Below are positions 17,151-43,833 of a DNA stretch of 64,000 bases, in pieces (the first letter of the stretch is position 1; the number at the start of each line of letters is the position of its first letter). The notes beneath the pieces were generated by a model that was not told the DNA's origin, made no database searches, and was given only the letters and a program-made list of their open reading frames with translations. The stretch is from positions 17,974-81,973 of the forward strand of contig CAJUBQ010000011.1 of assembly GCA_910584595.1 (NCBI GenBank), in the 5' to 3' direction. The DNA comes from an uncultured Eubacterium sp. GTDB taxonomy: Bacteria; Bacillota; Clostridia; Lachnospirales; Lachnospiraceae. A program made the position numbers and the translations under genes.

Positions 17151-17177
17151 GACCAAACATGAAAGGAGAACTTAGTT

Positions 17178-20709: not shown

Positions 20710-20810
20710 AATGGTTCTGCACTTCTTACATTTCTGTTAGAACTTTGTAAGAAAACTTGATACAAATGGCGTTCATATTATTTTACAATAGGATTAGAGG
20801 TGATAATACT

Positions 20811-21563: not shown

Positions 21564-21567
21564 AATT

Positions 21568-23622
21568 ATGCTTGCAAGTCTTTCACAACGTAATATGAAA
21601 CGGCAGTTAAGTGAATATAAGATTTTTTGGTTTTCCCTTATCGGCGTTGTTGCCCTTATGTATGCGTTCAATTCTCTTATTGTTTCTCATACTATGCAAC
21701 AGCTTTTTCGTTTATTTGCCGAGAGCGGAAACGGTGATATTGGCGTGATTGCCGCCCTTTTTTCTGCCGTCGTTGTATTTGCACTTGGGTGGTTTATCAG
21801 CTACATGATGGACTTCATCTTACAGCGTCGCAGCAAGGAAATTAGCACCTATATGATATTGGGTGTAGAAAAAGGCGACATTTGCAAAATGATATTTAAG
21901 GAAAATGCTTTTTTGGGCCTTATGGCTGTTATTGTGGGCTTTGGCTTTGGGATTTTAGTTTCTAAAATATTAGAAAGTTTTGTTTCAAATCTATTCCACT
22001 TTCAAGAAGCATTATTAGCTTTTCTTTCTGTATCAGCAGTCGGCTTGACTTGCATCGAATTTTGCATTGTCTATATAATCGCACTGATTAAGACGAATAG
22101 AAAAGTACAAACGGTTAAATTGATAGATCTGTTGAATTACAGTCGGAACAACAGTAGTGTTCGTGAACACCAATCTAAAACTGGCTTCATGTTTTTGCTG
22201 ATTTCCGTGGTAATGCTCATTGTAAGTTTCTATTTGTTTGCGGGAACAAAACAGACAGTGGCAAGCATTACCGCAGGTGCAGTTTCGGCAATGTTGGGGC
22301 TGTTGTTCTTCTTTCGAGGATTTATTTATATCATACACGAAATGCTTAATAAATCTCAGAACTGGAAATACAAAGGAAGTCGTTTAGTTACCTTACGAAT
22401 GTTCCTTTCAAAATCCAACAAAATGAGTTTCTCATTAGGTGTTATCTCAATTTTATTCACCTGCACCATCGTTTGTATTGGTATGACAAATGCTTTTTAT
22501 CAGGTCATGGAGAAAGCAGTTGTTATGCAGCCATTCGACCTTGCGATTGTTCATGTAGGTGAGAACGGTGATTATAGCCAATATTCCTCATTCTTGAATG
22601 AACGCATTGATGTAGACAACCAATATTCCTATTGCTTATATACAGATAAAAGCACACAATTTACTGACATTAGAAATCGTGTCTTAACAAAATACTGGAA
22701 CAGGGCAAGCAAAACCGTATCAATCAACGACTATGTTATTGCAGAAAACCAGTACGATGCCTTTATGAAATATAGTGATTATTGTAATTTGCGAGCAATG
22801 TTGGGCCTGCCTCAAATACCATTGTCAGAAGAACAATACATCATTCATTGCCTGCCATATCTGAAAGATACATTTACAAATTTTCAGATTGAAAAAGGCA
22901 CTCTGGTTTGCAAGGATATTTTTACCGAGGCGTTCTCACAGTATGGTGGATATGGTAACGGCCAAGATTTTGTAATCGTTGTCCCGGATCACTATATTGA
23001 AAATATGGAAGCGATGTACAGCCTCTATGTTGCTCAATCCGAAACAGTGATTGATATGTCTGAATTGGAAAACGAATTTCCGCAAGTTAGGCCATTGAAC
23101 TCCAATGTGGTTGCTTCCGGGGAAAACGGATACACAACAAAAATCCTCGACAAAGGAAACTATTACTACATGGGCAAATTAGCAAGTACACCTACCAGCC
23201 AAGCTATCTTAATTATTCTGCCATTGTGCTACTTGTCGCTGGTTATCGGCATAATTAGTATTGTAATACTCGCTGTTCAACTTTTGACGGAAGTGAAAAC
23301 AATAAAGCGTCAATACAATGTAATGAGAACACTTGGAAACGAGGTGATTGTTCTTGAAAAAATGTTGAGAGATCATATATTTCTTTACTTCGCATTGCCA
23401 TTTATTCCTGCAATAGTCATTGGTAGTTGCTTACTAAAGTCAATGAGCCATACGCTTTTTATAGCTTCTTATGATGTGCCTGTATTTGATAATCTAACCG
23501 CATTGATAGCACTTGTGGTTTTGAGTGCTTTACTGATTTTTACCCTTATTTATCTCCTGTATGCGTTTATTGCCTCTCAGTCTATGAGGAAGGAAATAAT
23601 CCCTCTAACATTAGAAAAATAA
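21568..23622 (+). CDS. FtsX-family ABC permease (BceB-like)
   Basis: 684 aa. TM clusters at both ends flank a large central soluble loop, the usual BceB architecture. Confidence 0.8.
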   Translation: MLASLSQRNMKRQLSEYKIFWFSLIGVVALMYAFNSLIVSHTMQQLFRLFAESGNGDIGVIAALFSAVVVFALGWFISYMMDFILQRRSKEISTYMILGVEKGDICKMIFKENAFLGLMAVIVGFGFGILVSKILESFVSNLFHFQEALLAFLSVSAVGLTCIEFCIVYIIALIKTNRKVQTVKLIDLLNYSRNNSSVREHQSKTGFMFLLISVVMLIVSFYLFAGTKQTVASITAGAVSAMLGLLFFFRGFIYIIHEMLNKSQNWKYKGSRLVTLRMFLSKSNKMSFSLGVISILFTCTIVCIGMTNAFYQVMEKAVVMQPFDLAIVHVGENGDYSQYSSFLNERIDVDNQYSYCLYTDKSTQFTDIRNRVLTKYWNRASKTVSINDYVIAENQYDAFMKYSDYCNLRAMLGLPQIPLSEEQYIIHCLPYLKDTFTNFQIEKGTLVCKDIFTEAFSQYGGYGNGQDFVIVVPDHYIENMEAMYSLYVAQSETVIDMSELENEFPQVRPLNSNVVASGENGYTTKILDKGNYYYMGKLASTPTSQAILIILPLCYLSLVIGIISIVILAVQLLTEVKTIKRQYNVMRTLGNEVIVLEKMLRDHIFLYFALPFIPAIVIGSCLLKSMSHTLFIASYDVPVFDNLTALIALVVLSALLIFTLIYLLYAFIASQSMRKEIIPLTLEK

Positions 23623-23700
23623 GTAGAATAGAAATTTCATCTGCCGGACGACGGCAAAAGAAAAAAGCCGTCGTACAGCAGCCCTATTCACGCGCCCATG

Positions 23701-23738
23701 AAACGGCAGCTCTAAATTTGAGCCGCCGTTTCCTTTTG
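23701..23738 (+). terminator. Rho-independent terminator
   Basis: AAACGGCAGCTC / GAGCCGCCGTTT (one mismatch) followed by CCTTTTG. Confidence 0.55.
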
Positions 23739-23892
23739 CAGAAAACCCAACGACGACCCTACACCTTGCAATTTGACATGGCGGCAATCAGGAGGACGCC
23801 GCCATGCACGGAAAAGTTTTTCGACATAAAACAACAAAGGCCATCTTATTAAAAAAGCCTGTTCTGCATCGTTTTTTTGCCACAAATAGATT

Positions 23893-26181: not shown

Positions 26182-26210
26182 TTGACTATTGAAGCTGCAT
26201 ATGCTATAAT
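26182..26210 (+). promoter_or_regulatory. near-consensus sigma-A promoter (copy 1)
   Basis: TTGACT, a 17-nt spacer, then TGcTATAAT (extended -10). TGGATTGACTATTG is identical to the sequence at 41408-41421. Confidence 0.6.
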
Positions 26211-26216
26211 GCTTAT

Positions 26217-26306
26217 ATCAGTTTCAAGATTTCCAAAGAGAAATCACGAGTTTCAGAGTTTTCAAAGTGTCAATTAGCACAATTGTGCTGGTTGGCACTT
26301 TTTTTG
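26217..26306 (+). ncRNA. candidate ~90-nt structured RNA / leader ending in a terminator (copy 1)
   Basis: Hairpin GATTTC/GAAATC (26228-26245). Terminator stem 26266-26280 / 26285-26299 has three T.G wobbles that only pair on the plus strand, followed by T7. Homologous to 41447-41534 with compensatory changes. Confidence 0.45.
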
Positions 26307-26388: not shown

Positions 26389-26886
26389 ATGTTAAAAGTT
26401 TTTGCAACACAAGTCGTCGTATCCAAAGGTTATGACAACACGCCAGCTCTTCGCTTTTCTGAGAATGGTGATTCTGTGAGGTTCCGTATCGGCAAGAAGG
26501 TCTATGATCCTCATGCTGAAAACGACAGCCGCTGGATCAACCTTCCGGTCAAAGCGTTTAACGGCGTATGCGAGCGCATCAAGAAGATGCAGCTGAAAGA
26601 GGGTTCCTTTGTGAATCTGATTGGCAGGCTGGACGAAGATTCCTGGGAAGATAAGGATACCAAAGAAACCAGAAAAATGATGGTTATTATTCTGGATGAC
26701 ATTGAGTATGCTTCCGGTGGAGGCAAGTCCAAGGAAAACCAGGCAGCTGCAGGACAGCAAAATGCGGCTCCCCAGAATACTGCTCCGCAAAATGCTGCTT
26801 CCGTTCCTGCGACAGGCGCTGAAGCATCCGGAAATTTTACCGGGTATGAAGCATTTGGCGGCGGATCATTCTTTGATGAGAATTGA
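26389..26886 (+). CDS. ssb: single-stranded DNA-binding protein
   Basis: OB-fold-like N-terminus (RFRIGKKV...WINLPVKAFNGVCE...GSFVNLIGRLDEDSWEDKD), a Q/A/N-rich linker, and the acidic tip GGSFFDEN. Confidence 0.75.
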   Translation: MLKVFATQVVVSKGYDNTPALRFSENGDSVRFRIGKKVYDPHAENDSRWINLPVKAFNGVCERIKKMQLKEGSFVNLIGRLDEDSWEDKDTKETRKMMVIILDDIEYASGGGKSKENQAAAGQQNAAPQNTAPQNAASVPATGAEASGNFTGYEAFGGGSFFDEN

Positions 26887-26917
26887 TTGGAGCAACAATT
26901 GAATCGGGCGTATTAAG

Positions 26918-26961
26918 GCGCACATGAGTTACAGATACTGTATGCTCATGTGCGCTTTTTT
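26918..26961 (+). terminator. Rho-independent terminator
   Basis: GCGCACATGAG / CTCATGTGCGC perfect 11-bp stem followed by TTTTTT. Confidence 0.7.
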
Positions 26962-26982
26962 GCGTTTCAAAGGAGGTGTCTT

Positions 26983-27363
26983 ATGACAAATGAAACCTTT
27001 TGCCTTCTCTCTGAGGAGGAGAAACACACAAAATTTAAGGCTGCAATGAAGGGCAAGACAAAAGGATGTCTGAATGAAGAAGAACTTCATAGCATCCTGA
27101 TGAGCATTTCCCTGAACAGACAGTATGCTATTTCGGTTTACCGAGACGGGGAAGAGTTTTGCCGCGTTTTGACAGCGACGAATGGTCTCAAAAGAAGAAC
27201 CATTCTTGGTCATGCAGCCGCAGATATTGGAGAAATACCCGGAAAACAATTTGACTCATCGCAGGCGGCGGCAGTAATTTTGCATGATGCTGTTGACTGC
27301 AGCGATGTAAACTGCCTCTATATCTTTATTCCAAAGGAACGAAGTCAGAAAGGAACAGAGTGA
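26983..27363 (+). CDS. hypothetical protein
   Basis: ATG 26983 follows AAGGAGGTG. No family recognised. Confidence 0.5.
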   Translation: MTNETFCLLSEEEKHTKFKAAMKGKTKGCLNEEELHSILMSISLNRQYAISVYRDGEEFCRVLTATNGLKRRTILGHAAADIGEIPGKQFDSSQAAAVILHDAVDCSDVNCLYIFIPKERSQKGTE

Positions 27364-28118
27364 TGAATAAGAAAGATCAAAAAAGGCACATGGCATATGA
27401 GGCGCTGGTACTGTTGGGTATGCTGGCTTTGCTTACTTTTATATGCCGGCTATGGCCCATCCTGTTATTGATTATTCTCGGTATTTTTGCAGCGGTGATA
27501 AGACTGCTTTTTCTTTCATCCAGAAAGATTGAAGTAATTGTACCACTTCCTCTTTTACCAGAACCGGTAAAAGAAACGACCGAGAAAGATGTACAGGTGC
27601 TTGCATATTCAGTCATCCTCAGACGGGTTACAGAGCTGGTGCTATCTGAGTATCCGGAAGCAAGATGGGTCTGGGAGGCACCGAATGCAGAAAAACTTAT
27701 TCAGGAAAGTCAGGAGGTTTTTATTTTACTCAATCGTGCCGGTGGTTATCGGCGTGCCAAGGTTGTGATCCGAAATCTGCAGGTGGTTGGAATTGAGTAC
27801 AATCCACAGGTTGAGGAGAATGCGGTTTTGGAGCCGGAGGATAATGCCCCGGAACCTGAAGAAGAACCAGAGGTACAAAATTACGAACTGCTGGCTTTTG
27901 AGTGGGCAGATGCTCATATTTTTGAGCTGAATGCCAGATGCAATGAAGCAATTGGGGAAAATCTCTCAGAATTGATTTTGCTCGCAGAAGAACTTCCGGT
28001 CCGGGAGAGTTGGGCAGATATCTGCCGGGAACTGATAAGAGCCGGGCTTACGGATGTTCAGTGTGTATCTGAGGGAATCAAAATTAATCTTACGCAGTCA
28101 AATGCAGAAAGGAAATAA
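27363..28118 (+). CDS. hypothetical membrane-anchored protein
   Basis: TGATG overlap with the upstream stop. Two N-terminal TM segments and an acidic central stretch. Confidence 0.5.
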   Translation: MNKKDQKRHMAYEALVLLGMLALLTFICRLWPILLLIILGIFAAVIRLLFLSSRKIEVIVPLPLLPEPVKETTEKDVQVLAYSVILRRVTELVLSEYPEARWVWEAPNAEKLIQESQEVFILLNRAGGYRRAKVVIRNLQVVGIEYNPQVEENAVLEPEDNAPEPEEEPEVQNYELLAFEWADAHIFELNARCNEAIGENLSELILLAEELPVRESWADICRELIRAGLTDVQCVSEGIKINLTQSNAERK

Positions 28119-28121
28119 CGT

Positions 28122-29996
28122 ATGAGTGCATACATGAACAACATCTTTAATTACAGCCGTCCCTTACCGGAACCGTTTGATACACTGACGAACAAAAAGG
28201 TGTCAGTATCATCGAAATATGGAGATGGGACAAATGCAACTTTGTGTTCAACAGTCATAAAAGCGGTACATGCAGTTTGCCGCTGCATGGATGGCAGTGC
28301 CGAAGGAGCTGTCGGGGTCATCGACCACAGGACAGTTGCTGAATACAAATCGTCCATGGGGCCTGATGAGTATCATCTGGTAGTATATGACAGCAACTCC
28401 GGTTCGTTAATGGCAAGCGTGTATGACAAGAACACGGAAACTTTTGAAAACTATGTGCTGAACGCATCAGGGCGTGATGGAGCTGCCGTTATGATGGCGC
28501 TGTTTCCGGTACTTATGAATGACGAGGAATTCAGTGATAATTTTGAATTGTACCGCGATCAGTTCAGTCATGGATTTTCGGATTTACGCTCGGCTACGGA
28601 GTACATGGCAATGCTATGTGACAACGCCTACAGACGTATCAAAGATACCTCCTGTTCAGCAGCCGTCAAGGTGAGTGTGGACAAGGCCGGAAATCTGATG
28701 CGTGTATCTCAGGTGCAGCTGGATTCCGGCGCTTTTGAGCCTACCCATGTGATTGCGGGGGAATTTACGATTTTTGCAAAAACAGCGAGGGTTATTGTGA
28801 AGAGCGCAGATGCCATTGTGGAACACACGGATTTTGTCGGCAAGTACGAACTGCACCCAAGGACTATGAGCAGTCAGGAAAAACAGCTGATACCGGTGCT
28901 TCCGGAATGGTACATCATTCCACAGGAGGTCGTTGATATCTGTAAACATGCTCAGGCAACCACCGGGAAACCGACACAGATGAGGAATTTTCTCCTTAGA
29001 GGGCCGGCCGGAACCGGAAAGACCATGAGCGCAAAGGCGATTGCCGCAGGACTGGGGCTTCCGTATATGGCATACACTTGCTCGGCAGGAACAGAAATAT
29101 TTGACTTCATCGGTCAGATATTCCCGGATTCCGATTCGGGTTCTACCGGTGATGCACAGCTTGACCATGAGAAAGCAATTTTGGCGAGTATGGGCGGAAT
29201 CAATTATGCCAACGTGTCTAAAATGATGAACCTTCCCGATTTGGATGATATGGACTACGATCCGGCGGGGGTATATCAGGCACTGACGGGCGTAGAGAAT
29301 GCGGCTGCCACATCTCAGGATTGCATGAGCATTGTGCTGGATCGTGTAACAGAGAAGGTACGTGCTCTGTCCAGACGGGATGAAAATTCCAAGGGCGGCG
29401 GTCAGACTTATACCTACACAGAGACAGACTTTATCAAAGCTCTGAAGAACGGATATGTCATCGAGATTCAGGAACCTTCCACGATTGTTCAGCCTGGTGT
29501 TCTGGTGGGACTAAACTCCCTGCTGGAGCAGACCGGAACAATCACCCTCCCTACCGGTGAAATCATCAAGCGTCATCCGGATGCAGTCGTAGTAGTAACA
29601 ACCAACATTGAATACGAAGGGTGCCGAGGCATGAACCAGTCCGTTATCGACAGAATGAGTCTGGTGCGGGACGTGGAGCTGCCGACGCCTGAAGTTATGG
29701 TGCAGCGTGCCATGTCAGTTACAGGTGCAACAGATGAGTACCAGATTTCCCAGATGGTGCAGGTGGTCAATGATCTGTCGGAGTATTGCCGAAAAAACAG
29801 TATTACAGACGGTTCATATGGTATGCGCAGTCTGATCGACTGGATCGTAAGCAGTGAGATTACCGGCGATGTATATGAGTCGGCGCTATATACGATCATC
29901 AGCAAGGCGACCACGGATGAAGTAGACCGTGAGGCACTGGTCAGTGCAGTTCTGGAACCGATTTTCACAAAGAAGCGGAAGAAAGCAACCGCATAA
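28122..29996 (+). CDS. MoxR/CbbQ-like AAA+ ATPase with ~270-aa unknown N-terminal region
   Basis: Walker A LLRGPAGTGKT, Walker B-like GYVIEIQEP, and a later VVVVTTN...GCRGMNQSVIDR segment fit the AAA_5 pattern. Confidence 0.75.
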   Translation: MSAYMNNIFNYSRPLPEPFDTLTNKKVSVSSKYGDGTNATLCSTVIKAVHAVCRCMDGSAEGAVGVIDHRTVAEYKSSMGPDEYHLVVYDSNSGSLMASVYDKNTETFENYVLNASGRDGAAVMMALFPVLMNDEEFSDNFELYRDQFSHGFSDLRSATEYMAMLCDNAYRRIKDTSCSAAVKVSVDKAGNLMRVSQVQLDSGAFEPTHVIAGEFTIFAKTARVIVKSADAIVEHTDFVGKYELHPRTMSSQEKQLIPVLPEWYIIPQEVVDICKHAQATTGKPTQMRNFLLRGPAGTGKTMSAKAIAAGLGLPYMAYTCSAGTEIFDFIGQIFPDSDSGSTGDAQLDHEKAILASMGGINYANVSKMMNLPDLDDMDYDPAGVYQALTGVENAAATSQDCMSIVLDRVTEKVRALSRRDENSKGGGQTYTYTETDFIKALKNGYVIEIQEPSTIVQPGVLVGLNSLLEQTGTITLPTGEIIKRHPDAVVVVTTNIEYEGCRGMNQSVIDRMSLVRDVELPTPEVMVQRAMSVTGATDEYQISQMVQVVNDLSEYCRKNSITDGSYGMRSLIDWIVSSEITGDVYESALYTIISKATTDEVDREALVSAVLEPIFTKKRKKATA

Positions 29997-30023
29997 ATGT
30001 AGTAGAAAGGAGGTCAACCCTGT

Positions 30024-32294
30024 ATGGCGAGGGTGAATCACAAGTTAGTAAAACAGCGGCTCAATGAGCAGCGCAGTAAAATTTCAGACCGACAATTCTT
30101 CTCGTCCCGTCTTTTGGCGGGACATTTTGAAGATCTGGCGGCGGCACAGACAAGGCGGTATCGCTATAACCGCCGGGTTCGTGTCAATCTGTATTGGAAA
30201 CCGAGAGAAAAGCATGTGGCGTCAACGGACAATATGTTTGTGCGCATCAATACTGGAAATTCTCTGGTTACAAAGGTAAAAGGGCGAGAAAACCGTTACC
30301 AGATTGTGTGCGGTTTGTTTGCACACGAACTGGGACATGTCCTTTATACAGACTTTCTGGCAGCACAGACACATACCAACTATTTAGGAAGCGGTCGTTG
30401 GTATCCCTATCCACCAGACCTGAAGACAACGGCGGATGCACGGAACGAGAAAGCATTCTGGAATTATGTGAAAACTGATCCGAAAAATCTGGAGATGGTG
30501 CAGATGATTGCCCATCATATCTCCAATGTAATTGAGGATGGGTATATCGAAAACAGGATGCTGAACAATTTTCCAGGCACATTGGGGTACGGTCTTGAAA
30601 AGCTGCGGGAGCAGCATTTTGAGCATATCGAAACGGTGACGCAGATGATTGAGAGTGAAGATGAAGGAAAGCATATTTTTGAAAGCATTCTTCAGATCAT
30701 GCTCTCGTATGCTAAGTTTGGTGAAATCAAATACGGGGACGAACCGCTCAGCGATGAAAGAATTCAGGCGGTGTTTGGTTTGATTACCGATATTGACAGC
30801 GCTTTACTGAGCAGGTCCGGAAAAGACCGGTTGAATGTTGTCAATATGGTGCTGGTAAGGTGCTGGGACTATATCGAATCTTTTTGTGAAGAATGCAAAA
30901 AGCGTCAGGAAGAGGCAGTAGCCTCCGGCGGCTCCGCCAGTCTTGCAGAAACCTTGTCGGAAGTGTTGGGTGCAATTGCCGGTGGTTCCGAAATGGGTGA
31001 AGGAAGTAGTACACCGGTGCCGGAAGCCTCTGGCGGGTCAGAAGAATCTGCGACGGCCGGCAAACGGGCACAGACCCATGCAGATGCCGACAGTGAAGAT
31101 GACTCTGAGGAAACAGACAGCTCCCAGACTGACTCTGAAACGGAAGAAAATCCATCTGAGTCTGGGGGAAGCGATAATTCTACAGACGAAGACGCTGCCC
31201 CGATAGATGGTGGCAGTTCCGGTTCAGGGAAACAAGAAACTTCAGATACTGAGCAGGGACGTATTCCTTATCACCAGTCAGAATCACTTTCAGAACCTGT
31301 TGGTGGTTCCGTGGAAAAAAACGAAGATTATGAGCGGGAGCATTACGACAGTGCGGCTGCCGATATTGAACGTCTTCTGGATAAGATGGCAGAAAAGGCG
31401 GCCTGTGAGCAACTGGAGAATGAAAGGATTCAGGAGCTTAACGATGTCGCTCAGAACATTTCCTATGGGAATATCCATGAAGGAGTACCTATCCGAATCA
31501 ACCGGATTGCCTCTGTGGATGAGGAGCTTATGGAACAGTACGATGCTATTTCAGGACCTTTGCTGAATATTTCCCGCCAGCTGCAGAAGAGTTTGCTCAA
31601 GCAGCTCAAGGAAAATCGGAGAGGCGGTAAACAGACCGGGCTTATCATGGGCCGCCGTCTGGATGCTCACGCACTGTGCAGGAATGACGGCAAGGTGTTT
31701 TATAAGAACAATCTGCCCAATGAGATCCCGGAACTGGCAGTCGGCCTGCTTCTGGATGAGTCAGGGTCCATGTGTTCCTGTGACCGCTGTACTTATGCCA
31801 GAGCTTCAGCTATCATTCTGTATGATTTCTGCCAGAGCCTGGATATCCCGGTTATGGTCTATGGCCATTCCACTGATTATACCGATGTCGGAAATACAGT
31901 AGCATTGTATTCCTATGCGGAATTTGATGGCTTTGATCATGATGATAAATACCGCATGATGGATATTGCGGCCAGAGGCAGTAACCGTGACGGGGCGGCA
32001 CTCCGTTTTGTTGCGGAGCAGCTGTCTAAGCGGCCAGAAGCAGTAAAAATCCTCATACTGGTTTCTGACGGACAGCCTGCTGACAGTGGGTATGGAGGTT
32101 CCGCAGCTGAGGAGGACCTTCGCGGCATCAAGCAGGAGTATCAGCGTAAAGGTATTTTGTTTGTCGCTGCGGCAATCGGAGATGACAAGCAAAACATTGA
32201 GAGAATCTACGGAGACTCATTCCTGGATATCTCGGATTTAAACCAACTGCCCATAAAACTAACCGCTGTTGTGAAGCGGCATGTGAGGGTATAA
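30024..32294 (+). CDS. VWA-domain protein with N-terminal HExxH metallopeptidase-like motif (CobT/NorD-like)
   Basis: FAHELGHVLY near residue 100. A long S/E/D-rich low-complexity linker. MIDAS LLLDESGSM and ILILVSDGQPAD in the C-terminal VWA domain. Confidence 0.75.
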   Translation: MARVNHKLVKQRLNEQRSKISDRQFFSSRLLAGHFEDLAAAQTRRYRYNRRVRVNLYWKPREKHVASTDNMFVRINTGNSLVTKVKGRENRYQIVCGLFAHELGHVLYTDFLAAQTHTNYLGSGRWYPYPPDLKTTADARNEKAFWNYVKTDPKNLEMVQMIAHHISNVIEDGYIENRMLNNFPGTLGYGLEKLREQHFEHIETVTQMIESEDEGKHIFESILQIMLSYAKFGEIKYGDEPLSDERIQAVFGLITDIDSALLSRSGKDRLNVVNMVLVRCWDYIESFCEECKKRQEEAVASGGSASLAETLSEVLGAIAGGSEMGEGSSTPVPEASGGSEESATAGKRAQTHADADSEDDSEETDSSQTDSETEENPSESGGSDNSTDEDAAPIDGGSSGSGKQETSDTEQGRIPYHQSESLSEPVGGSVEKNEDYEREHYDSAAADIERLLDKMAEKAACEQLENERIQELNDVAQNISYGNIHEGVPIRINRIASVDEELMEQYDAISGPLLNISRQLQKSLLKQLKENRRGGKQTGLIMGRRLDAHALCRNDGKVFYKNNLPNEIPELAVGLLLDESGSMCSCDRCTYARASAIILYDFCQSLDIPVMVYGHSTDYTDVGNTVALYSYAEFDGFDHDDKYRMMDIAARGSNRDGAALRFVAEQLSKRPEAVKILILVSDGQPADSGYGGSAAEEDLRGIKQEYQRKGILFVAAAIGDDKQNIERIYGDSFLDISDLNQLPIKLTAVVKRHVRV

Positions 32295-32373
32295 CAATAT
32301 CAAATCATAAAAAAGACGACGGGCAGCTGGATTTCTACAGCTGCCCGCCTGTTATTCAGAAAGGAAGGTAATT

Positions 32374-33498
32374 ATGCACTTTTTAACATTAGCAGCTTTA
32401 GAAATCTCTCAGATACAGGAAGACAAGGAATTGGACAACCAGATTGCAGAGGCGCTGAAGGAATTGGAGCTTCAGAAGCAAATTGAAACAAAGAATTTTA
32501 TGCTGGATTTTGCGATTGGGAGATGTCAAAATCTTCAGTCATCGTTCTCCCGTGCAGTGAATGACGGCGTTTCTGAGCTGATGTATCCTTATTGTGAGTC
32601 GCTGGAGGATCCGGAATATCTGGAATTTGAAGATCGGACAGAAAAACTGCGCGAGGAATATGAGGATGCGGTTGATTGCATAAAGCTGCCTCAAGGAACA
32701 GTTGTGGAGCAGTATGGCGATCCACTCTGGGGCAGATTTGTTGTCCGTGACGGAAAAGTGTTCCAAAGGGATGCAGGATCGCTTCATCATGAAAAGCGTA
32801 CAAAGAAAGCAAAACGAATGGTGGCTCTGCCTAATTATCCCCGCAAAAAGCTCTATAAGAGTTTTGAGAAATATGCAGAAGAAAGGTGTGGCTTTTCTTT
32901 TGATGAAAAGCATCAAGGCTATGGATATTATTATAATCCAAACGCCATATGGGATTGGTATTCCATTGGCGGGCGATGGCCGGAGATGTTCCTGGTAAAG
33001 GACGACTGCACTGAGTATTCTATCGGTGAGCGAAGCTGGTGCAACTCGGACCGGAAATCAGAGGCGCCGGAAGGATACCGGTGGGTATGCGCTGCCAGGA
33101 AAAAGGACATTGCGTGGGATGCCATGCGGGACTGGCGAAACCAGAAAGCCGCAGAGCGGTTCCATAAGCTTGAACAGATGTTCCTGGCAGGAAAGACGGA
33201 TCCGGATTTCCATGGAGAGATTGTCCCGGACGGAGTTATGCACTGGGGCGAACTGGTTTACCGCAAGGGCTCTACCTTGGAGGAATACCTGGAGGAATAT
33301 GGGATTCCGGGCAGCTGGAAGTATCCGGTAGGCTCGCATGACATCGTGGATGAGGACCAGTGGCTGAGCAAAGATGACAGTGTGCTGGATGCAGAATCTG
33401 AAAAATATGTTCCAGTAGACTGGCGCAGCTGCATAGATGGCTACATTGATGATGTGGATGAGGATACGGTACTGGTTGCCGTAGATTATCATATGTGA
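32374..33498 (+). CDS. hypothetical protein
   Basis: 374 aa with a W-rich segment NPNAIWDWYSIGGRWPEMF. No family assigned. Confidence 0.5.
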   Translation: MHFLTLAALEISQIQEDKELDNQIAEALKELELQKQIETKNFMLDFAIGRCQNLQSSFSRAVNDGVSELMYPYCESLEDPEYLEFEDRTEKLREEYEDAVDCIKLPQGTVVEQYGDPLWGRFVVRDGKVFQRDAGSLHHEKRTKKAKRMVALPNYPRKKLYKSFEKYAEERCGFSFDEKHQGYGYYYNPNAIWDWYSIGGRWPEMFLVKDDCTEYSIGERSWCNSDRKSEAPEGYRWVCAARKKDIAWDAMRDWRNQKAAERFHKLEQMFLAGKTDPDFHGEIVPDGVMHWGELVYRKGSTLEEYLEEYGIPGSWKYPVGSHDIVDEDQWLSKDDSVLDAESEKYVPVDWRSCIDGYIDDVDEDTVLVAVDYHM

Positions 33499-33509
33499 GG
33501 AGGATTCAG

Positions 33510-33767
33510 ATGAATACATATGTTATTTGTATGGACTCTGTATGGGTTCGTGACTCAGAAATGTTTGATATTGTCGGTCTGACAGATGAAGAATTGACGG
33601 ATATTGATATGTGCGGCACAGATAACGAAGGCAGATGGCACGATATGGAGCCGACCCCATTTATCGCAGTCATAAAGGCGGAAAGCGAGGAGGAAGCCTG
33701 CAAAAAGGCGGCCACCCAAATGCGCTATGATCCACGCTGTCTGTTTGCAATAAAAGTTTCAGAATAA
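33510..33767 (+). CDS. small acidic hypothetical protein
   Basis: ATG 33510 follows GAGGAGGA. 85 aa. Confidence 0.45.
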   Translation: MNTYVICMDSVWVRDSEMFDIVGLTDEELTDIDMCGTDNEGRWHDMEPTPFIAVIKAESEEEACKKAATQMRYDPRCLFAIKVSE

Positions 33768-33782
33768 AGGAGGTATCAAAAA

Positions 33783-34646
33783 ATGATTATCAATCGAATC
33801 GGTGCTGAGTTTGAATACGACGGCACAACTTATGTAATCGGCGCTCCCATCGTGGGAACGCCGGAAAGCGAGTATGAGGGTCTGTATGGGACGATTACGG
33901 AAATCCGTGATGGAGAGGATAAGGAAACGGAAAATGAAACGCCGGATATATATTGCTCTTTTGAAGTTCCTGCACTGCCCTGTGAAGTAAAAAAGCTGGA
34001 AGAGGTTTTCTCTGAACTGTATGACCAGAAAAAGACCATTGACGACATCATCCTGGATCTTGTCATCATGGCTCCGTCTATGGTGGAGCCGCTTGATGAC
34101 CTGAAAGAGTGTCGCCAGCATCCAAGGATTTATATTCTTTTGGAAGATTGGGCGGTTGACGGCGAACAGGGAAATTCTTCCGAGGTCTATACGGACTTCA
34201 ATGATGCGAAACGCATACTGGTCCAGAAACTGAAAGAGGAGCAGGAAAGCGGCTGTATTCCGCAATGGGTGGATGATGAGAAGTTCAAGGAGCATTCCAC
34301 GGACTCCCTCTATGAATGTTACATTGACGGCGAATACTGCGAGAGCCATTACCATATCGCAATCGTCTCTCAGCAGTTCTGCGTTTCCAATCGGTTTGTC
34401 AGGGAGATGGGATGGCTTTACCAGGCGTCCTGCCAGCTTGAAGATTTTGTATCACAGGTGTCAGACTGGGATGAATTGGATCAGCTGACCGATGAGCAAT
34501 ATAACCGCATGGTCCAGGATCCCCGTTTCCCGGAAAGGCTCCAGAACAAGCTGGGCAAAAACGATTCTTACTGGGAATCTTACTGGGAGAGCGTTTCAGA
34601 GGTTGCACATGAGTTTGTGAGTGAGTATCTGAAAAAGGAGACATAA
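33783..34646 (+). CDS. acidic hypothetical protein
   Basis: RBS AAGGAGG upstream. 287 aa, rich in D/E. No family recognised. Confidence 0.5.
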   Translation: MIINRIGAEFEYDGTTYVIGAPIVGTPESEYEGLYGTITEIRDGEDKETENETPDIYCSFEVPALPCEVKKLEEVFSELYDQKKTIDDIILDLVIMAPSMVEPLDDLKECRQHPRIYILLEDWAVDGEQGNSSEVYTDFNDAKRILVQKLKEEQESGCIPQWVDDEKFKEHSTDSLYECYIDGEYCESHYHIAIVSQQFCVSNRFVREMGWLYQASCQLEDFVSQVSDWDELDQLTDEQYNRMVQDPRFPERLQNKLGKNDSYWESYWESVSEVAHEFVSEYLKKET

Positions 34647-34651
34647 AGACT

Positions 34652-34993
34652 ATGAATACAAGGATTAACTATCTCTACCGGGATGCAGACAACTACAAGA
34701 TGCCAAATTCCTGTGTGGTTATTGGCGAGATAAGCGAAGTGCAAATCGCAGAAGTCATATCCTGTCTGGACTGTGGGGAATATTTCATTCCCCGGCAGGT
34801 GGGGCTTCCTGAAAAACGCTTTGACAGGTTTGACGAGGAGGTGGACCATTGCTGGTTTGAATTAAGTGCAGATGGGTTTGAGGCTACCGAAAATGTTTCC
34901 AATGTTGACATGACTGTGGTGCAGCTCTTGGAGTTGTTCCGCAGTGCGAAAAACAACTGGCATGATGACGTGCCATTAGGAGGTGCAGTATGA
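34652..34993 (+). CDS. hypothetical protein
   Basis: 113 aa starting MNTRINYLYRDADNYK. Tight spacing in the operon. Confidence 0.5.
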   Translation: MNTRINYLYRDADNYKMPNSCVVIGEISEVQIAEVISCLDCGEYFIPRQVGLPEKRFDRFDEEVDHCWFELSADGFEATENVSNVDMTVVQLLELFRSAKNNWHDDVPLGGAV

Positions 34994-35427
34994 GTTACTC
35001 AGAATGGCATACTTACGGCTATGGGATCTGCGTTTCCGATATTACGGATGAGTCTGTGGAACGCCTGCAGAAGCTGATTTCCCTGGCACCGGAGTACCAA
35101 AAGAAAATACAGGCATGGCTGGATGAGTGTGAGATATCGGAGCCGGCCTACGAGGATTATCTGGAGTTCGACCAGGACTATATGCTTGGCCTGGCAACCA
35201 TCTTAAAAGAAGTGATCCTTGAGGCAGAGGACATTGATCTTGTGGCGTGCGACAGCCATGACGGCACGGATTATCTGCTCTATGTGCCGGATTATCCCTG
35301 GAACATGGGAAAACACAGACAGCTCATGACGGAGGAGGCCGTCGCAGGGCTTTTCCGAAAATATGTTTCCATTTTGACAGATGAGGCGATAGAAATAGAT
35401 TACCAGTCTGTTGAGAATGGAGGTTAG
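34990..35427 (+). CDS. acidic hypothetical protein
   Basis: ATGA overlap with the upstream stop. 145 aa. Confidence 0.5.
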   Translation: MSYSEWHTYGYGICVSDITDESVERLQKLISLAPEYQKKIQAWLDECEISEPAYEDYLEFDQDYMLGLATILKEVILEAEDIDLVACDSHDGTDYLLYVPDYPWNMGKHRQLMTEEAVAGLFRKYVSILTDEAIEIDYQSVENGG

Positions 35428-35438
35428 GAGGTGGCGTT

Positions 35439-36371
35439 ATGCCTTATAAAAGCGATACAAGGCCGCTGACCAGCATCGTCTCCTATCCGGAGCGTGGCGA
35501 AGGCGGCAACAACCGTTACCGGGGGAACTGTTCCCCCAGACTGATCGAGGACCTTCTGGAGTTCTTCCAGCCGGCAGAAATCTGCGATTATATGTGCGGA
35601 AGCGGGACGACCAAAGCGGCGGCGGACAAGCTGGGTATTGGCAGTCATCTCTATGACCTGCACAGCGGTTTTGACATCATGAACTGCGAGATCCCGGAGC
35701 GCCCGGAGTTTATATTCTGGCACCCTCCATACTGGGATATCGTGACCTATTCGGATGTCATGTACAAAGCGGCGGATGTCCAGAAGAGCTACGGCTATGA
35801 CCCGAGGCAGTATGACCTGTCACGCATACCGGACTGGGCAGGCTTTGTGGAAAAAATGAATTACGCCATGATGAAGCAGTTTTCTGCCCTTGAAAAAGGC
35901 GGCAGGATGGCGGTGCTGATGGGCGATATCAAGAAGAAAGGCGTGCTGTACAGTATGCTTTCCGAGATCGTCAAACCGGGGTCTTTGGAGAATATCATTA
36001 TCAAGGCCCAGCATAACTGCTTTTCAGACCAGATCCAGTATAGCGGGAAATTCATACCGATCTTACATGAGTATGTGATGATTGTCCGAAAGGATTCACC
36101 GCTTTTGGTTCCGATTATCATGGCAAAGAAAACGGAGGTCGATATCCGGGATATGCCGGGAGCGACATGGCGTGATGTGGTTGCTGCCGTTTTGGAACAG
36201 TGCAGCGAGCCGGTGACGCTCACGTTTCTCTATGAGAAAATAGAGCCGCACAAAAAAGCACAGGCAAATAAGTGGTGGAAAGAAAAAATCCGCCAAACGC
36301 TTCAGATCAATCCTACATACTTCTTTCATGATGGCAGGGGAATGTGGTCGTTGAACAGAAGCGCAGCATAG
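35439..36371 (+). CDS. orphan DNA methyltransferase-like protein (amino-MTase type)
   Basis: SAM-binding-like DYMCGSGTT precedes IFWHPPYW, a variant of the (D/N/S)PP(Y/F) motif IV. No restriction partner is adjacent. Confidence 0.6.
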   Translation: MPYKSDTRPLTSIVSYPERGEGGNNRYRGNCSPRLIEDLLEFFQPAEICDYMCGSGTTKAAADKLGIGSHLYDLHSGFDIMNCEIPERPEFIFWHPPYWDIVTYSDVMYKAADVQKSYGYDPRQYDLSRIPDWAGFVEKMNYAMMKQFSALEKGGRMAVLMGDIKKKGVLYSMLSEIVKPGSLENIIIKAQHNCFSDQIQYSGKFIPILHEYVMIVRKDSPLLVPIIMAKKTEVDIRDMPGATWRDVVAAVLEQCSEPVTLTFLYEKIEPHKKAQANKWWKEKIRQTLQINPTYFFHDGRGMWSLNRSAA

Positions 36372-36486
36372 TATCTGCGTCTGGGGGATGTCTTTTATAG
36401 GCATCCCTCAGTTGCTTTAACTATATGTAGAAGAAGGATGGCCTTTTTGCTATAATACAAATATACTTATGAACAGGAGGCGAAAT

Positions 36487-36813
36487 ATGTCTGTTTATTA
36501 TAATCCGGACACGTACAGAAAAATTATCAGAAATGGTGAAGAATGTTGGGTATATGATTGGGGCAAAAATGCTGATATAAATTCGTTCAATTATATGCTG
36601 GATCGCTGGGAGGGCACTCAGCAACAATTTTTTATCAATGGTGAGACCAAGCAATATTTTCTTATTAATAAACAAGAGCGTACTGTCATGGAAATATCAA
36701 ATCCAGAAGTAATAAGGTTCCTGTATGAGAATCTTTATATGGCGAATATTAACGAGACTTTTATCGAACTGTTTACCTCAATCGGAGGGTTTAAAACAGT
36801 AAAGTACGAGTAG
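36487..36813 (+). CDS. hypothetical protein in an AT-rich cassette
   Basis: ATG 36487 follows AGGAGG. It has its own TGcTATAAT at 36448-36456 and is flanked by similar GGGGATG...CATCCC hairpins. Confidence 0.45.
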   Translation: MSVYYNPDTYRKIIRNGEECWVYDWGKNADINSFNYMLDRWEGTQQQFFINGETKQYFLINKQERTVMEISNPEVIRFLYENLYMANINETFIELFTSIGGFKTVKYE

Positions 36814-36830
36814 ATTCTGATTTTTTTCTT

Positions 36831-36861
36831 GGGGATGTCATTTCGGCGGCATCCCTTTTTG
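36831..36861 (+). terminator. Rho-independent terminator
   Basis: GGGGATG...CATCCC followed by TTTTTG. Confidence 0.55.
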
Positions 36862-36905
36862 TATAACTGTTTTCAATTTGGATATACTAATCTCCGAGGG
36901 TTCTA

Positions 36906-36952
36906 TTTACATTCGCACTTCAATAGTGTATAATGTGGAGTGCGGATGTAAA
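36906..36952 (+). promoter_or_regulatory. abiE promoter bracketed by a 14-bp inverted repeat
   Basis: TTTACA (36906-36911), a 17-nt spacer, then TATAAT (36929-36934). TTTACATTCGCACT (36906-36919) and AGTGCGGATGTAAA (36939-36952) are inverted repeats with one mismatch. Confidence 0.5.
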
Positions 36953-37572
36953 TGGAACCAAGGAGGTGCATTGATACGGACACGATTTGGACTAAAATTC
37001 AAACAATTGCAGAAAAAAGCAATGGGTTTGTTAAGACTTCTGATATTGAGGCGGCTGGAATCAGCAGACCGATGTTGAAAAAGTATGTTGATATGGGAAA
37101 ATTAGATCCGGTGCGAAAAGGGTTATATACTTTGACCGATGAATTTACTGATGAGTTTGCGCTTCTTCAGGCACAAAGCGCAAAGATAATATATTCCTAT
37201 GGCACCGCACTGTTCTTTTGGGGGATGTCGGACAGGGCGCCGAACATCTTGGATATAACGCTGCCTCGCGGAACGAACATCAGCAGGTTAAGGCGTGATA
37301 ATCCAAATTTACGTTGTCATTATGTACAGACGGAAGTTTACGATCTTGGAATAACAGAAACAAAATCCCCTCAAGGCGGGATGGTAAAGCTGTATGACAG
37401 GGAGCGCTGTATTTGTGATGTGATCCGGGATAAGGATCAAATTGAGCTCCAGCTTTTTACGCAGGCAATTAAGGACTATTTTAAGACAAATCCAAATAAC
37501 CGAAAATTGCTGAAATATGGCAAGGTATTTGGAATTGAAGATAAGATAAGAACATATATGGAGGTTTTATAA
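36952..37572 (+). CDS. abiEi: type IV toxin-antitoxin system antitoxin, AbiEi family
   Basis: N-terminal wHTH-like GFVKTSDIEAAGISRPMLKKYVDMGKLDPVRKGLY. Its position and 1-nt overlap (TAATG) with the AbiEii gene support the call. Confidence 0.7.
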   Translation: MEPRRCIDTDTIWTKIQTIAEKSNGFVKTSDIEAAGISRPMLKKYVDMGKLDPVRKGLYTLTDEFTDEFALLQAQSAKIIYSYGTALFFWGMSDRAPNILDITLPRGTNISRLRRDNPNLRCHYVQTEVYDLGITETKSPQGGMVKLYDRERCICDVIRDKDQIELQLFTQAIKDYFKTNPNNRKLLKYGKVFGIEDKIRTYMEVL

Positions 37573-38411
37573 TGAAGACACCGGAACAACTAAAAGGAGC
37601 CATTCGCAGCATGGCAGCGAAGAAAAATCTTCGTGCACAGGAAGTGCTGCAGATGTTTTTATTTGAAAGAATCATTGATCGTTTGGCAGCTTCATCCTTT
37701 CGGGACAATTTTATTTTGAAGGGCGGACTCTTGATATCATCAATGATCGGTATTGGTGAACGCACTACTATGGATATGGACACAACGGCGCGTGGTATTC
37801 AGATGGAAGAGGACGAGATCGTTTCTGCAGTCAAAGAGATTATCGCAATGGATGTGGGAGACGGAATTTCTTTTGAATTTCAGAAAATTGAACCAATCCG
37901 CGAGGATGATGCGTACAATAATTTCCGGGTTCATCTGCGTGCAAAATACGGGAAGATTGACAGCCCAATGAAGATAGACATTACTACCGGAGATATTATT
38001 ACGCCTGCAGCCATTCGTTATGATTTCCCGTTTGTGTTTGAGGAGAAAACGGTTTCGGTCATGGCATATACGCTTGAGACAGTGCTTGCGGAAAAATATG
38101 AAACGATTATCCGCAGAAACATTGGAACTACAAGGGCAAGGGATTATTATGATTTACATACTCTTTACCGCAGCCGTAAAGATGTGGTTCAGATGGAGGT
38201 TCTGAGAGCAGCAGTTATTCATACTGCGGAGAAAAGAGATTCGGTTGATGATATCATGGACTGGAGAGATATTTTGAAGGATATCCGTGAAGAGCCGCAG
38301 TTATATCTTCTGTGGGATAATTATGCTGCGGACAACAAATACATTGGAGATTTGAAATTCAATGAAGTTCTTGATACAGTGGACGAAATTGCAAAGATTC
38401 TTGATTTGTGA
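37572..38411 (+). CDS. abiEii: nucleotidyltransferase toxin, AbiEii/AbiGii family
   Basis: FILKGGLLIS...TMDMDT... and LAEKYETIIRR...RARDYYDL are typical AbiEii segments. Confidence 0.8.
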   Translation: MKTPEQLKGAIRSMAAKKNLRAQEVLQMFLFERIIDRLAASSFRDNFILKGGLLISSMIGIGERTTMDMDTTARGIQMEEDEIVSAVKEIIAMDVGDGISFEFQKIEPIREDDAYNNFRVHLRAKYGKIDSPMKIDITTGDIITPAAIRYDFPFVFEEKTVSVMAYTLETVLAEKYETIIRRNIGTTRARDYYDLHTLYRSRKDVVQMEVLRAAVIHTAEKRDSVDDIMDWRDILKDIREEPQLYLLWDNYAADNKYIGDLKFNEVLDTVDEIAKILDL

Positions 38412-38488
38412 TATCAAGTAAGAAAAGATTAAATTTTTTTTGAAACACTTATAATAGAAATCGGAATTTGAAAGTGAGGTGTAATTAA

Positions 38489-39472
38489 ATGAATAAAGAA
38501 GAATTACATCGTGTTATAGGAGAGCAACAGCCTAATATATGCCAAGTGGTTGCAGTCAAAGATAGCAACATTATTTATAGTGATACTTGGAATGATTTCA
38601 AACAAGATGATAATGTTCATATTGCTTCGGTAACAAAAAGCATTATAGCCATACTTATAGGAATTGCTATTGACAAAGGTATGATTAAAAGTATTCATCA
38701 AAAAGTATTGGACTTTTTCCCTGACTATGTGATTAAAAGAGGAGAAAAGACCATACACGATATTACTTTATATCATTTGCTTACGATGACCGCACCGTAT
38801 AAATTCAAGTCGGAGCCTTGGACAAAAGTATGTATGAGTGAGGATTGGACAAAGGCAGTTCTTGATTTGCTCGGCGGTAAAAGCGATATTATAGGTGAGT
38901 TTAAGTATTCAACACTCGGTATACATATATTGAGTACAATAATAACCAAAGTAAGCAATATGCCAACATTGGAATTTGCCAATAAATATTTATTTAAGCC
39001 CCTTGGAATAAAGAACAGACATCTTTACACAGTAAAAAACAAAGAGGAACATATTGGCTTTGTAACTTCAAAAGAACCTAAAGAAAACGGTTGGTTTTGT
39101 GATAACAAAGGAACAGTTACTTCGGGTTTTGGCTTGTGTTTATCAGCAGAAGATATGGCGAAAATAGGACAAATGTGCCTTGATAAAGGAATGTATGATA
39201 ACAAAAGAATTGTATCTTCTGAATGGATTGAAAAGATAACAACACCATATTTAACTACTGATGAAAAATTTGGATTTATGCAATATGGATTTTTGTGGTG
39301 GATTATAGATAGTGAAAAGAAAATATATTCTGCAATCGGCGATAGCGGAAATGTAATATATGTTAATACCGAAAAAAATATCGTTATATCCGTTACGGCA
39401 ACTTTCAAACCTTTGGTATTTGATAGGGTTCAGTTTATAAGAGAATATATCGAGCCATTTGTTTTAGGATGA
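38489..39472 (+). CDS. serine hydrolase, beta-lactamase/transpeptidase-like
   Basis: S-x-x-K motif in IASVTKSIIAILIG. Size and overall pattern match class C-like serine hydrolases. Confidence 0.75.
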   Translation: MNKEELHRVIGEQQPNICQVVAVKDSNIIYSDTWNDFKQDDNVHIASVTKSIIAILIGIAIDKGMIKSIHQKVLDFFPDYVIKRGEKTIHDITLYHLLTMTAPYKFKSEPWTKVCMSEDWTKAVLDLLGGKSDIIGEFKYSTLGIHILSTIITKVSNMPTLEFANKYLFKPLGIKNRHLYTVKNKEEHIGFVTSKEPKENGWFCDNKGTVTSGFGLCLSAEDMAKIGQMCLDKGMYDNKRIVSSEWIEKITTPYLTTDEKFGFMQYGFLWWIIDSEKKIYSAIGDSGNVIYVNTEKNIVISVTATFKPLVFDRVQFIREYIEPFVLG

Positions 39473-39527
39473 CAAATTCTGATTTATCAATTCATAAAGT
39501 TTTGAAATAAAAAGAATATTGTAACCC

Positions 39528-39558
39528 GGAGATGTTGATTATCAGCATCTCTTTTTTA
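39528..39558 (+). terminator. Rho-independent terminator
   Basis: GGAGATGTTGAT / ATCAGCATCTC followed by TTTTTT. Confidence 0.55.
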
Positions 39559-39580
39559 TATCAAAAAGGAGGTATATAGT

Positions 39581-39691
39581 ATGGGATGGTTGATAGGTAT
39601 CCTTAGTTTTATAGGCGGCAGCGTGTTTGGCGTTGTTTTTATGTGTATGTTTCAGATTAACCGAACTTACAGAAATAAGCGCTCGGAGTAA
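39581..39691 (+). CDS. 36-aa membrane peptide, DUF3789-like (below the track cutoff)
   Basis: AAAGGAGG lies 8 nt upstream. The product is MGWLIGILSFIGGSVFGVVFMCMFQINRTYRNKRSE, a single TM segment plus a basic tail as in small ICE peptides. Confidence 0.4.
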   Translation: MGWLIGILSFIGGSVFGVVFMCMFQINRTYRNKRSE

Positions 39692-39720
39692 ACATTTGCA
39701 GTAAGAATGCTCTTTTCTCC

Positions 39721-41394: not shown

Positions 41395-41411
41395 TCTTTT
41401 CTCCTGGTGGA

Positions 41412-41440
41412 TTGACTATTGCAAATAAATCTGTTATAAT
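41412..41440 (+). promoter_or_regulatory. near-consensus sigma-A promoter (copy 2)
   Basis: TTGACT, a 17-nt spacer, then TGtTATAAT. It lies 7 nt downstream of the IS target duplication. Confidence 0.6.
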
Positions 41441-41446
41441 ATTTAC

Positions 41447-41534
41447 ATCAGTATCAAGTTTGGCTACGGCTAAACACAGTTTAACAGAGTTTATCAAAGT
41501 GTCATTTGCAATTTTGCAGATGGCACTTTTTTTG
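41447..41534 (+). ncRNA. candidate ~90-nt structured RNA / leader ending in a terminator (copy 2)
   Basis: Hairpin GTTTGGC/GCTAAAC (41458-41475). Terminator 41498-41510 / 41515-41527 followed by T7. Shares the blocks ATCAGTnTCAAG and CAGAGTTTnTCAAAGTGTCA with copy 1. Confidence 0.45.
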
Positions 41535-41640
41535 TTTTCCGGCCAATTCATTTGGGCATAAGCCAGCAGTCTTTCGGGATTGCTGGCTTTTGTTATATAT
41601 CAAGGCGGCAATCCCGCCAGAAAAGAAAGGAGCATGAAAT

Positions 41641-43820: not shown

Positions 43821-43833
43821 AAAGGAGACCATA

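Follow-up and report, generated by a model that had tools for sequence, protein, structure and literature searches.

A row of 12 co-directional genes at positions 26389-36371 (+ strand) forms the first operon of a similarly gated pair in the backbone of large integrated elements of gut Clostridia. We studied it in a 64,000-nucleotide (nt) stretch, hereafter the window, from contig CAJUBQ010000011.1 of an uncultured Eubacterium sp. (Lachnospiraceae). Taken together, the analysis leads us to propose, with a probability of roughly 45%, that this row is an establishment and host-defense-evasion module. Gut Clostridia exchange large integrated elements heavily. To our knowledge, what has been learned about how mobile elements establish themselves and counter host defenses comes almost entirely from plasmids and phages of Proteobacteria, and we know of essentially no account of how large clostridial gut elements survive entry. 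What would be new here is a Gram-positive version of a known type of establishment and defense-evasion module, along with uncharacterized protein families. The strongest lead goes beyond the small acidic orphans alone: it is the block of an AAA+ ATPase (AAA624), a protein with a VWA domain (VWA756) and two unannotated proteins (u374 and u287), together with a predicted orphan DNA methylase (MTase310).

Organization of the gene row

In the open reading frame (ORF) listing, the genes of the row are separated by gaps of -4 to 79 nt, and nearly all of them have a strong Shine-Dalgarno sequence in front. The features of the row are given below (aa, amino acids; pI, isoelectric point).

26182-26301, + strand: promoter-leader-terminator module upstream of ssb, from a promoter and terminator scan
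26389-26886, + strand: ssb, divergent single-strand DNA-binding protein (SSB), 165 aa (PF00436, phrog_44)
26950-27363, + strand: u137, small protein, in closer relatives only
27360-28118, + strand: u252, acidic backbone protein (pI 4.8), membrane anchored as judged from sequence
28122-29996, + strand: AAA624, AAA+ ATPase of the MoxR/CbbQ/CobS/midasin (AAA_5) clade, from Pfam, PHROGs and PDB matches
30024-32294, + strand: VWA756 (CobT_C, VWA, phrog_1576)
32320-32347, + strand: GC-rich hairpin in the gap from VWA756 to u374, either a sub-operon boundary or an attenuator
32374-33498, + strand: u374, fast-evolving backbone protein (pI 4.8), from homologs and motifs
33495-33767, + strand: u90, small acidic orphan, 85 aa from the ATG at 33510, in close relatives only
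33783-34646, + strand: u287, acidic backbone protein (pI 4.2), with 576 homologs, none named
34652-34993, + strand: u113, acidic accessory protein, with 155 homologs
34990-35427, + strand: u145, very acidic accessory protein (pI 4.07), with 421 representative clusters
35439-36371, + strand: MTase310, predicted type II-like amino DNA methyltransferase (PF01555, PADLOC)

The promoter, TTGACT-17-TGcTATAAT at 26182-26210, has an extended -10 element and agrees with the sigma-70 consensus at 11 of 12 positions. A short leader follows, and then a terminator hairpin of 17 bp (26264-26301) ahead of ssb. A second copy of this promoter-RNA module lies at 41412-41529, in front of the partner operon described below. 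The hairpin at 32320-32347 and another one after the methylase, at 36381-36411, divide the row into two sub-operons. The original prediction, made from the sequence alone, described a promoter-RNA module followed by 12 tightly spaced, co-directional genes. This description is confirmed. The same order is found in about 50 loci from several genera and is not a chance arrangement.

A remodeler-type pair of AAA+ and VWA proteins

AAA624 carries an N-terminal extension of about 250 aa beyond its AAA_5 ATPase domain (AAA_5, 4e-9; phrog_249, 3e-21). Its sequence matches in PDB are midasin (3e-18), CbbQ (7e-6) and CobS (2.5e-3), and the Walker A motif GP[AS]GTGKT is present in 40 of 40 orthologs. In the adjoining VWA756, an acidic Ser/Glu/Asp linker joins an N-terminal, metallopeptidase-like domain with an HExxH motif to a C-terminal, CobT-like VWA domain that contains a metal ion-dependent adhesion site (MIDAS). 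VWA756 matches CobT_C in Pfam (5e-10) and CobT (3e-4) and NorD (0.08) in PDB; all 43 orthologs retain both HExxH and the MIDAS sequence DxS[GA]S. The two proteins thus show what characterizes a MoxR/CobS-type AAA+ protein with its VWA partner, an AAA_5 domain with Walker A beside a VWA domain with MIDAS. Their sequences place the pair in the CbbQ/CobS-CobT/NorQ-NorD class of remodelers. It shares with these systems the arrangement of the two genes, the intact MIDAS and the best PDB matches (midasin, CbbQ, CobS, CobT and NorD). In contrast to them, it has no client gene for CobN, Rubisco or nitric oxide reductase, sits in a mobile element, and contains the extra N-terminal domain of the ATPase and the HExxH domain and acidic linker of the VWA protein. 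An aerobic cobaltochelatase CobNST was considered and rejected: neither the window nor relatives contain a CobN or cobalamin gene, and the NCBIfam CobT model scores 16.9 bits against a cutoff of 759. A tblastn match to an AAA-VWA protein of an Enterococcus faecium megaplasmid was also set aside, being a single fused gene in a metabolic context; the remaining matches were generic MoxR and NorD proteins.

The two backbone genes at the head of the row encode the SSB and u252. The SSB scores 28.5 bits with PF00436, where the cutoff is 26, and its C-terminal tip (...GGSFFDEN) is kept in 39 orthologs. The protein u252 has two hydrophobic N-terminal segments, and its gene adjoins ssb in nearly all loci.

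AAA+ and VWA proteins also occur together in the vWA-MoxR ternary systems, which are predicted conflict systems (PMC7159879). The block of AAA624, VWA756 with its HExxH domain, u374 and u287 could therefore be an element-borne defense or exclusion system of this NTP-dependent type, directed against phages or rival elements. The elements do bear defense cargo elsewhere (AbiE here, and in one relative a cyclic oligonucleotide-based antiphage signaling system, CBASS), and the fast-evolving partners could be sensors. We nevertheless regard such a system as quite improbable. PADLOC reports no defense system in the row and its match is limited to the P-loop, and no effector domain is recognizable, Pfam finding none in u374 or u287. 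Furthermore, the block belongs to the core gene set and shares one transcription unit with ssb behind a gate that is off by default, whereas the defense cargo of these elements sits in separate hotspots.

Backbone genes and a predicted orphan methylase

We searched by tblastn with the window proteins in 52 genome loci and several metagenome and IMG/VR loci. About 50 loci, from Lachnospiraceae, Oscillospiraceae, Ruminococcaceae and others, keep the backbone order u190, u152, ssb, u252, AAA, VWA, u374, u287, [slot], MTase, [slot], DUF932-like, YqaJ, DUF7768, RecD2, u319, primase. Across 27 diverged loci, the median identity to the window protein is 80% for YqaJ, 77% for the methylase, 71% for the AAA+ ATPase, 70% for the DUF932-like protein, 68% for the VWA protein, 58% for SSB, 55% for both u287 and u252, and 48% for u374. 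By these medians, the methylase is among the best-conserved genes of the backbone, to which u374 and u287 also belong, as fast-evolving members.

The row was first described as ending in the methylase; the median identity of 77% marks this gene as part of the backbone and not as a terminal add-on. MTase310 scores 31.2 bits with PF01555 (N6_N4_Mtase; cutoff, 26.7) and 2e-12 with MTase_II in PADLOC. In its sequence, motif I (GSGT) precedes an unusual motif IV, HPPY, which departs from the canonical (D/N/S)PP(Y/F). HPPY is invariant in the 33 methylase orthologs, and GSG[ST] is present in all but one of them (32/33). No gene resembling a restriction enzyme adjoins the methylase, either here or in relatives, as had been noted for this DNA. 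We describe MTase310 as a predicted orphan type II-like methyltransferase whose gene is highly conserved in the backbone.

A second, distant element family exists (35 to 46% identity) that has a different integrase, with DUF3173. It keeps together AAA_5, VWA, MTase, u374, LigA, DUF932-like, YqaJ and DUF7768, and since these genes are co-retained at such a distance, we argue that they share one process.

The stretch from u374 to the DUF932-like gene occurs in 33 distinct versions of 1.2 to 8.1 kb that hold 55 ORF families. The methylase (27 versions) and u287 (31 versions) are present in most of them; u145 is found in 18, AbiEi in 12, AbiEii in 11, u90 in 9, u114 in 8 and u113 in 7. About 40 slot families occur in three versions or fewer each, and some versions carry a group II intron reverse transcriptase (loci L013 to L015). 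Thus, u90, u113, u145 and AbiE occupy a hypervariable slot. This divides the five unknown proteins that had been treated as one group: u90, u113 and u145 are swappable accessories, but u374 and u287 are backbone genes linked to the AAA+/VWA pair.

The acidic proteins of the row

The pI values of u374, u90, u287, u113 and u145 are 4.77, 4.47, 4.24, 4.31 and 4.07, respectively. Searches of Pfam, NCBIfam and PADLOC assigned no function to any of the five, and the sole PHROG match was that of u374. The earlier description of five proteins without an assignable motif, several of them acidic, is borne out by these results. Profiles of u287, u374, u145 and u113 found nothing among PDB sequences, and profile-profile comparison showed the unknown families to be unrelated to each other.

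The 610 homologs of u374 are all nameless, and phrog_10079, which it matches, is a family of unknown function. Two motifs, KRTK[KR]AK[RK] and WDWYxIGGRW, are invariant. The center of the protein (about residues 60 to 235, including WDWYxIGGRW) has remote homologs in enterobacterial jumbo phages of about 355 kb, among them gp351 of Cronobacter phage GAP32 (L102, 7953-8975). Further remote homologs occur in a Burkholderia phage, a Moorella phage and Myxococcus phage Mx1, and every one of these phage proteins is annotated as hypothetical. We found no consistent AAA or VWA neighbor of the u374 homologs in the jumbo phages and Mx1. When plasmids were searched with u374 by tblastn, only two partial matches, to Clostridium megaplasmids, were obtained; the same search with u145 gave none.

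The AlphaFold2 (AF2) model of u287 has a confidence (pLDDT) of 90.4 and shows, after an SH3/Tudor-like barrel at the N terminus, a middle domain of the alpha/beta type and a helical C terminus. With Foldseek, its best PDB match is partial (E = 0.018), and just the N-terminal barrel weakly resembles SH3, Tudor, PWWP and chromo domains. The acidity is kept throughout the u287 family (pI 4.1 to 4.6). The u145 model is also confident (pLDDT, 94.1; pTM, 0.88), and its best PDB match has an E value of 0.11 and a template modeling (TM) score of 0.30. The single similar structure for u145 is that of an uncharacterized gut siphovirus protein (TM, 0.63). According to these models, neither u287 nor u145 matches a solved fold.

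The u145 family, with a median pI of 4.24, also occurs outside the operon, in unrelated elements. One copy stands beside a giant SNF2-N6-methylase protein; for another, three serine recombinases are encoded at a distance of 4 kb. The invariant polar residues of u113, YLYRDxxNYK...E...DH...E, look enzyme-like. One u113 homolog is fused to LPD28, a domain of polyvalent proteins in phages and conjugative elements (PMC5512222).

A proposed role in establishment and defense evasion

The row belongs to a mobile element, as had been supposed. A Tn916-type integrase is encoded at 53109-54359, homologs of the row proteins occur solely in integrated elements and on contigs of phages or viruses, and the hosts are gut Lachnospiraceae and relatives. 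A megablast search with the island found no near-identical DNA in plasmid and phage collections.

The closest functional precedent is the hde operon of IncC plasmids and SXT/R391 elements. Its AAA_5 ATPase Vcrx089 and the neighboring Vcrx090 relieve type I restriction upon expression in the recipient, and its Ssb, Bet and YqaJ-family Exo repair CRISPR and restriction breaks (PMC7498323). Deletion of vcrx089-90 raises EcoKI and EcoBI restriction 400- to 900-fold (Dimitriu et al. 2024, PMC11602122). The hde genes thus act in the recipient against type I and type II restriction and against CRISPR cuts (2020, PMC7498323; Dimitriu et al. 2024, PMC11602122). The elements described here have an ATPase of the AAA_5 clade with an adjacent partner, an SSB of their own, a YqaJ exonuclease and long co-directional operons. 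We propose establishment and defense evasion because the logic is the same: an SSB, an AAA_5 remodeler with its partner, and an exonuclease with repair and replication enzymes. There are differences as well. The partner here is a 756-aa VWA protein with HExxH, whereas Pfam recognizes no domain in Vcrx090. The genes are divided between two gated operons, with u374, u287 and the orphan methylase as additions, and the hosts are Gram positive.

From sequence and gene context we infer the following scheme, which covers the biochemical roles, the time of expression, the client of the AAA+/VWA pair, the parts of u374 and u287 and the target of the methylase. Activation of the element, or its arrival in a new cell, would turn the module on. 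SSB would coat the single-stranded DNA of the element, and the HPPY methylase would modify element DNA so that host restriction enzymes ignore it. The AAA+ ATPase may dock through the MIDAS site of the CobT-like VWA protein and, with the HExxH domain of the latter, remodel or cleave a host target, u374 and u287 being possible specificity or inhibitor subunits. Element DNA that is nevertheless cut could be repaired and replicated by the products of the partner operon (DUF932-like, YqaJ, RecD2 and primase) and by LigA, encoded elsewhere in the element. The slot genes u90, u113 and u145 and AbiE would be interchangeable, and they are the best candidates for stand-alone antidefense or addiction functions. 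A more specific form of the proposal would make AAA+/VWA-HExxH/u374/u287 a new ATP-driven machine that dismantles or cleaves host restriction or defense complexes, and u145, u113 and u90 new stand-alone inhibitors of defense; this we hold to be doubtful.

A number of results weigh against establishment and defense evasion. With AAA624 and VWA756, tblastn finds no IncC or SXT plasmid, and the link to hde is at the level of the Pfam clade only. The CbbQ_C domain that accompanies AAA_5 in the hde ATPase is not detected by Pfam in AAA624, for which the PDB match to CbbQ is 7e-6. The elements have no annealase of the RecT, Bet or Erf type; a DUF932-like gene precedes the exonuclease instead. As with ArdA, Ocr and KlcA (ArdB), small and very acidic proteins (pI about 4.1 to 4.3) are encoded here on a mobile element, close to an orphan methylase, and a check for folds of this kind had been suggested. 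Applied to u287 and u145, it revealed no likeness: the anti-restriction proteins are absent from the 50 best PDB matches of both, whose top whole-chain TM score is at most 0.32 and neither of which has a match in PDB. Pfam, NCBIfam and PHROGs gave no sequence match to ArdA, Ocr or KlcA either. Fast divergence and acidity would equally fit weakly constrained structural or scaffolding proteins. Neither the 64-kb window nor the roughly 45 kb that we walked to the left in relatives yielded a relaxase, an origin of transfer (oriT) or a type IV secretion system, so that arrival by conjugation is an assumption. On the favorable side, low-depth coverage by metatranscriptome contigs indicates that the operon is not wholly silent in the gut, but contaminating DNA may contribute to this signal.

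The AAA+/VWA block, the methylase and the unannotated families are clonable candidates for antidefense screens. The module is widespread, with hundreds of homologs across several families, a defined regulatory gate and an atypical HPPY methylase. At least four of its protein families lack annotation, two of them with confident models that match nothing solved. Its putative remodeler pair is analogous to the still-unexplained Vcrx089-090 anti-restriction system.

Relation to conjugative leading regions

Enrichment of SSBs, orphan methylases and AbiE pairs is a feature of the antidefense islands of conjugative elements (Samuel et al. 2024, PMC11541004). The pattern of ssb, orphan methylase and small acidic orphans pointed out in the original prediction, to which AbiE is added here, fits these islands. 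The row could be a true leading-region antidefense island, as that prediction had it: it would enter the recipient ahead of all other DNA, and its genes would be expressed from the strand that is transferred. This possibility overlaps with establishment and defense evasion. Its content is like that of known islands (PMC11541004): ssb, MTase310 and AbiEi/AbiEii all lie on the + strand together with uncharacterized small proteins, and the turnover of small genes is high. In relatives, markers of conjugative elements are nearby. YodL, DUF3789 and the sortase-pilus genes suggest, indirectly, a conjugative lifestyle (PMC5512222).

We consider a true leading region unlikely, however. The missing relaxase, oriT and type IV secretion system count here too; the walk to the left in relatives crossed cargo transporters, one CBASS and a sortase-pilus locus with Xer-like integrases. 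The sole MobC/NikA-like gene (15866-16351) is in the cargo segment and on the opposite (-) strand. About 27 kb separate the island from the end with the integrase, and the other end is far away as well. Unlike leading-region islands, it has no homolog of ArdA, KlcA, PsiB or Acr and no other known antidefense family alongside, and it has a promoter-leader-terminator gate instead of an Frpo-like promoter. An Frpo-like single-stranded DNA promoter was rejected on the folds of the two promoter modules, which share no hairpin enclosing both -35 and -10.

The second slot and the partner operon

The region to the right of the row contains the following features.

36469-41394, + strand: second variable slot, with u114, AbiEi/AbiEii, a beta-lactamase-fold gene and an IS4-family insertion (Pfam)
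36952-38411, + strand: AbiEi/AbiEii toxin-antitoxin pair, sporadic in relatives
38489-39472, + strand: beta-lactamase-fold gene (Pfam)
41412-49446, + strand: partner operon behind the second promoter-RNA module, from Pfam, synteny and promoter scan

The partner operon encodes a DUF932-like protein of 380 aa, a YqaJ exonuclease, DUF7768, a RecD2 helicase, u319 (319 aa), DUF4313 and a primase. The DUF932-like gene, whose product has no Pfam match, is translationally coupled to the exonuclease gene. After the primase come an actin-like segregation ATPase, a helix-turn-helix protein, a sigma-70 region-4 protein, DUF6462 and then the integrase.

Given these genes, the row could be a module of plain replication and maintenance. 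After excision, the replisome of the element or its loading or partition machinery would then include SSB, the AAA+/VWA pair, u374 and u287; the methylase would serve replication control or self-marking, and the row would have no part in countering host defenses. The primase, RecD2 helicase and actin-like segregation ATPase of the element, with LigA in relatives, speak for such a module; u374, u287 and the methylase are fixed backbone genes and not accessories, and no known antidefense family was detected. Yet pairs of MoxR/CobS-type AAA+ and VWA proteins are protein remodelers and not known replisome parts, and the invariant HExxH peptidase-like motif has no obvious role in replication. Moreover, u374 and u287 diverge much faster than true DNA enzymes do, and the sole tested mobile-element operon of such a makeup acts against restriction and CRISPR (PMC7498323). 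On balance, a plain replication and maintenance function seems somewhat improbable to us.

On the conjugative plasmid pGRT1 of Pseudomonas putida (L025, 7899-9951), a DUF932 gene lies directly upstream of a YqaJ exonuclease gene, as it does at 41641-43820 of the window. This hints at a cross-phylum two-gene module of DUF932 and YqaJ without a RecT-type annealase. A YqaJ match in Klebsiella was set aside as belonging to a prophage on an IncF plasmid. The DUF7768 protein (43834-44358) matches the PHROG nucleoside 2-deoxyribosyltransferase (5e-15) and may thus add a nucleotide or base-exchange activity to the partner operon.

Left module, cargo and insertions

Beyond ssb, diverged relatives have a left module of an N6 methylase, LigA, DUF4262, YodL, two CxxCxxCC genes and a 221-aa gene. 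In the window, the CxxCxxCC and 221-aa genes are found at 2808-5122; because these left-module genes sit there, we take 5.2 to 23.8 kb as hotspot cargo. This segment (5200-23800) contains MerR and TetR regulators, ABC transporters, a two-component system, an FtsX permease and an S-adenosylmethionine methyltransferase. Relatives carry different cargo at the same point between the left module and the ssb operon.

Other loads adjoin the left module itself. Directly upstream of it, relative L094 has the CBASS cargo (2836-7073), made up of a CD-NTase, an E1/E2 (ThiF + Prok-E2_B) protein, a 168-aa gene and a SAVED effector. The sortase-dependent pilus locus of relatives is also upstream of the left module (L100, 1526-16401), between two small Xer-like integrases. 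It encodes a 1900-aa SpaA/DUF7601 adhesin, a signal peptidase, FctA-type pilins and two sortases.

The IS4-family insertion of the window (39711-41394) is polymorphic: contigs from four public runs join 39710 to 41395. The joint skips 1684 nt at a 10-nt shared repeat and represents the unoccupied site of other strains. In close relatives the row is also interrupted by insertions of about 2.8 kb, between VWA756 and u374 in L002 (about 7200-10000) and between AAA624 and VWA756 in L003 and L004 (about 4850-7669).

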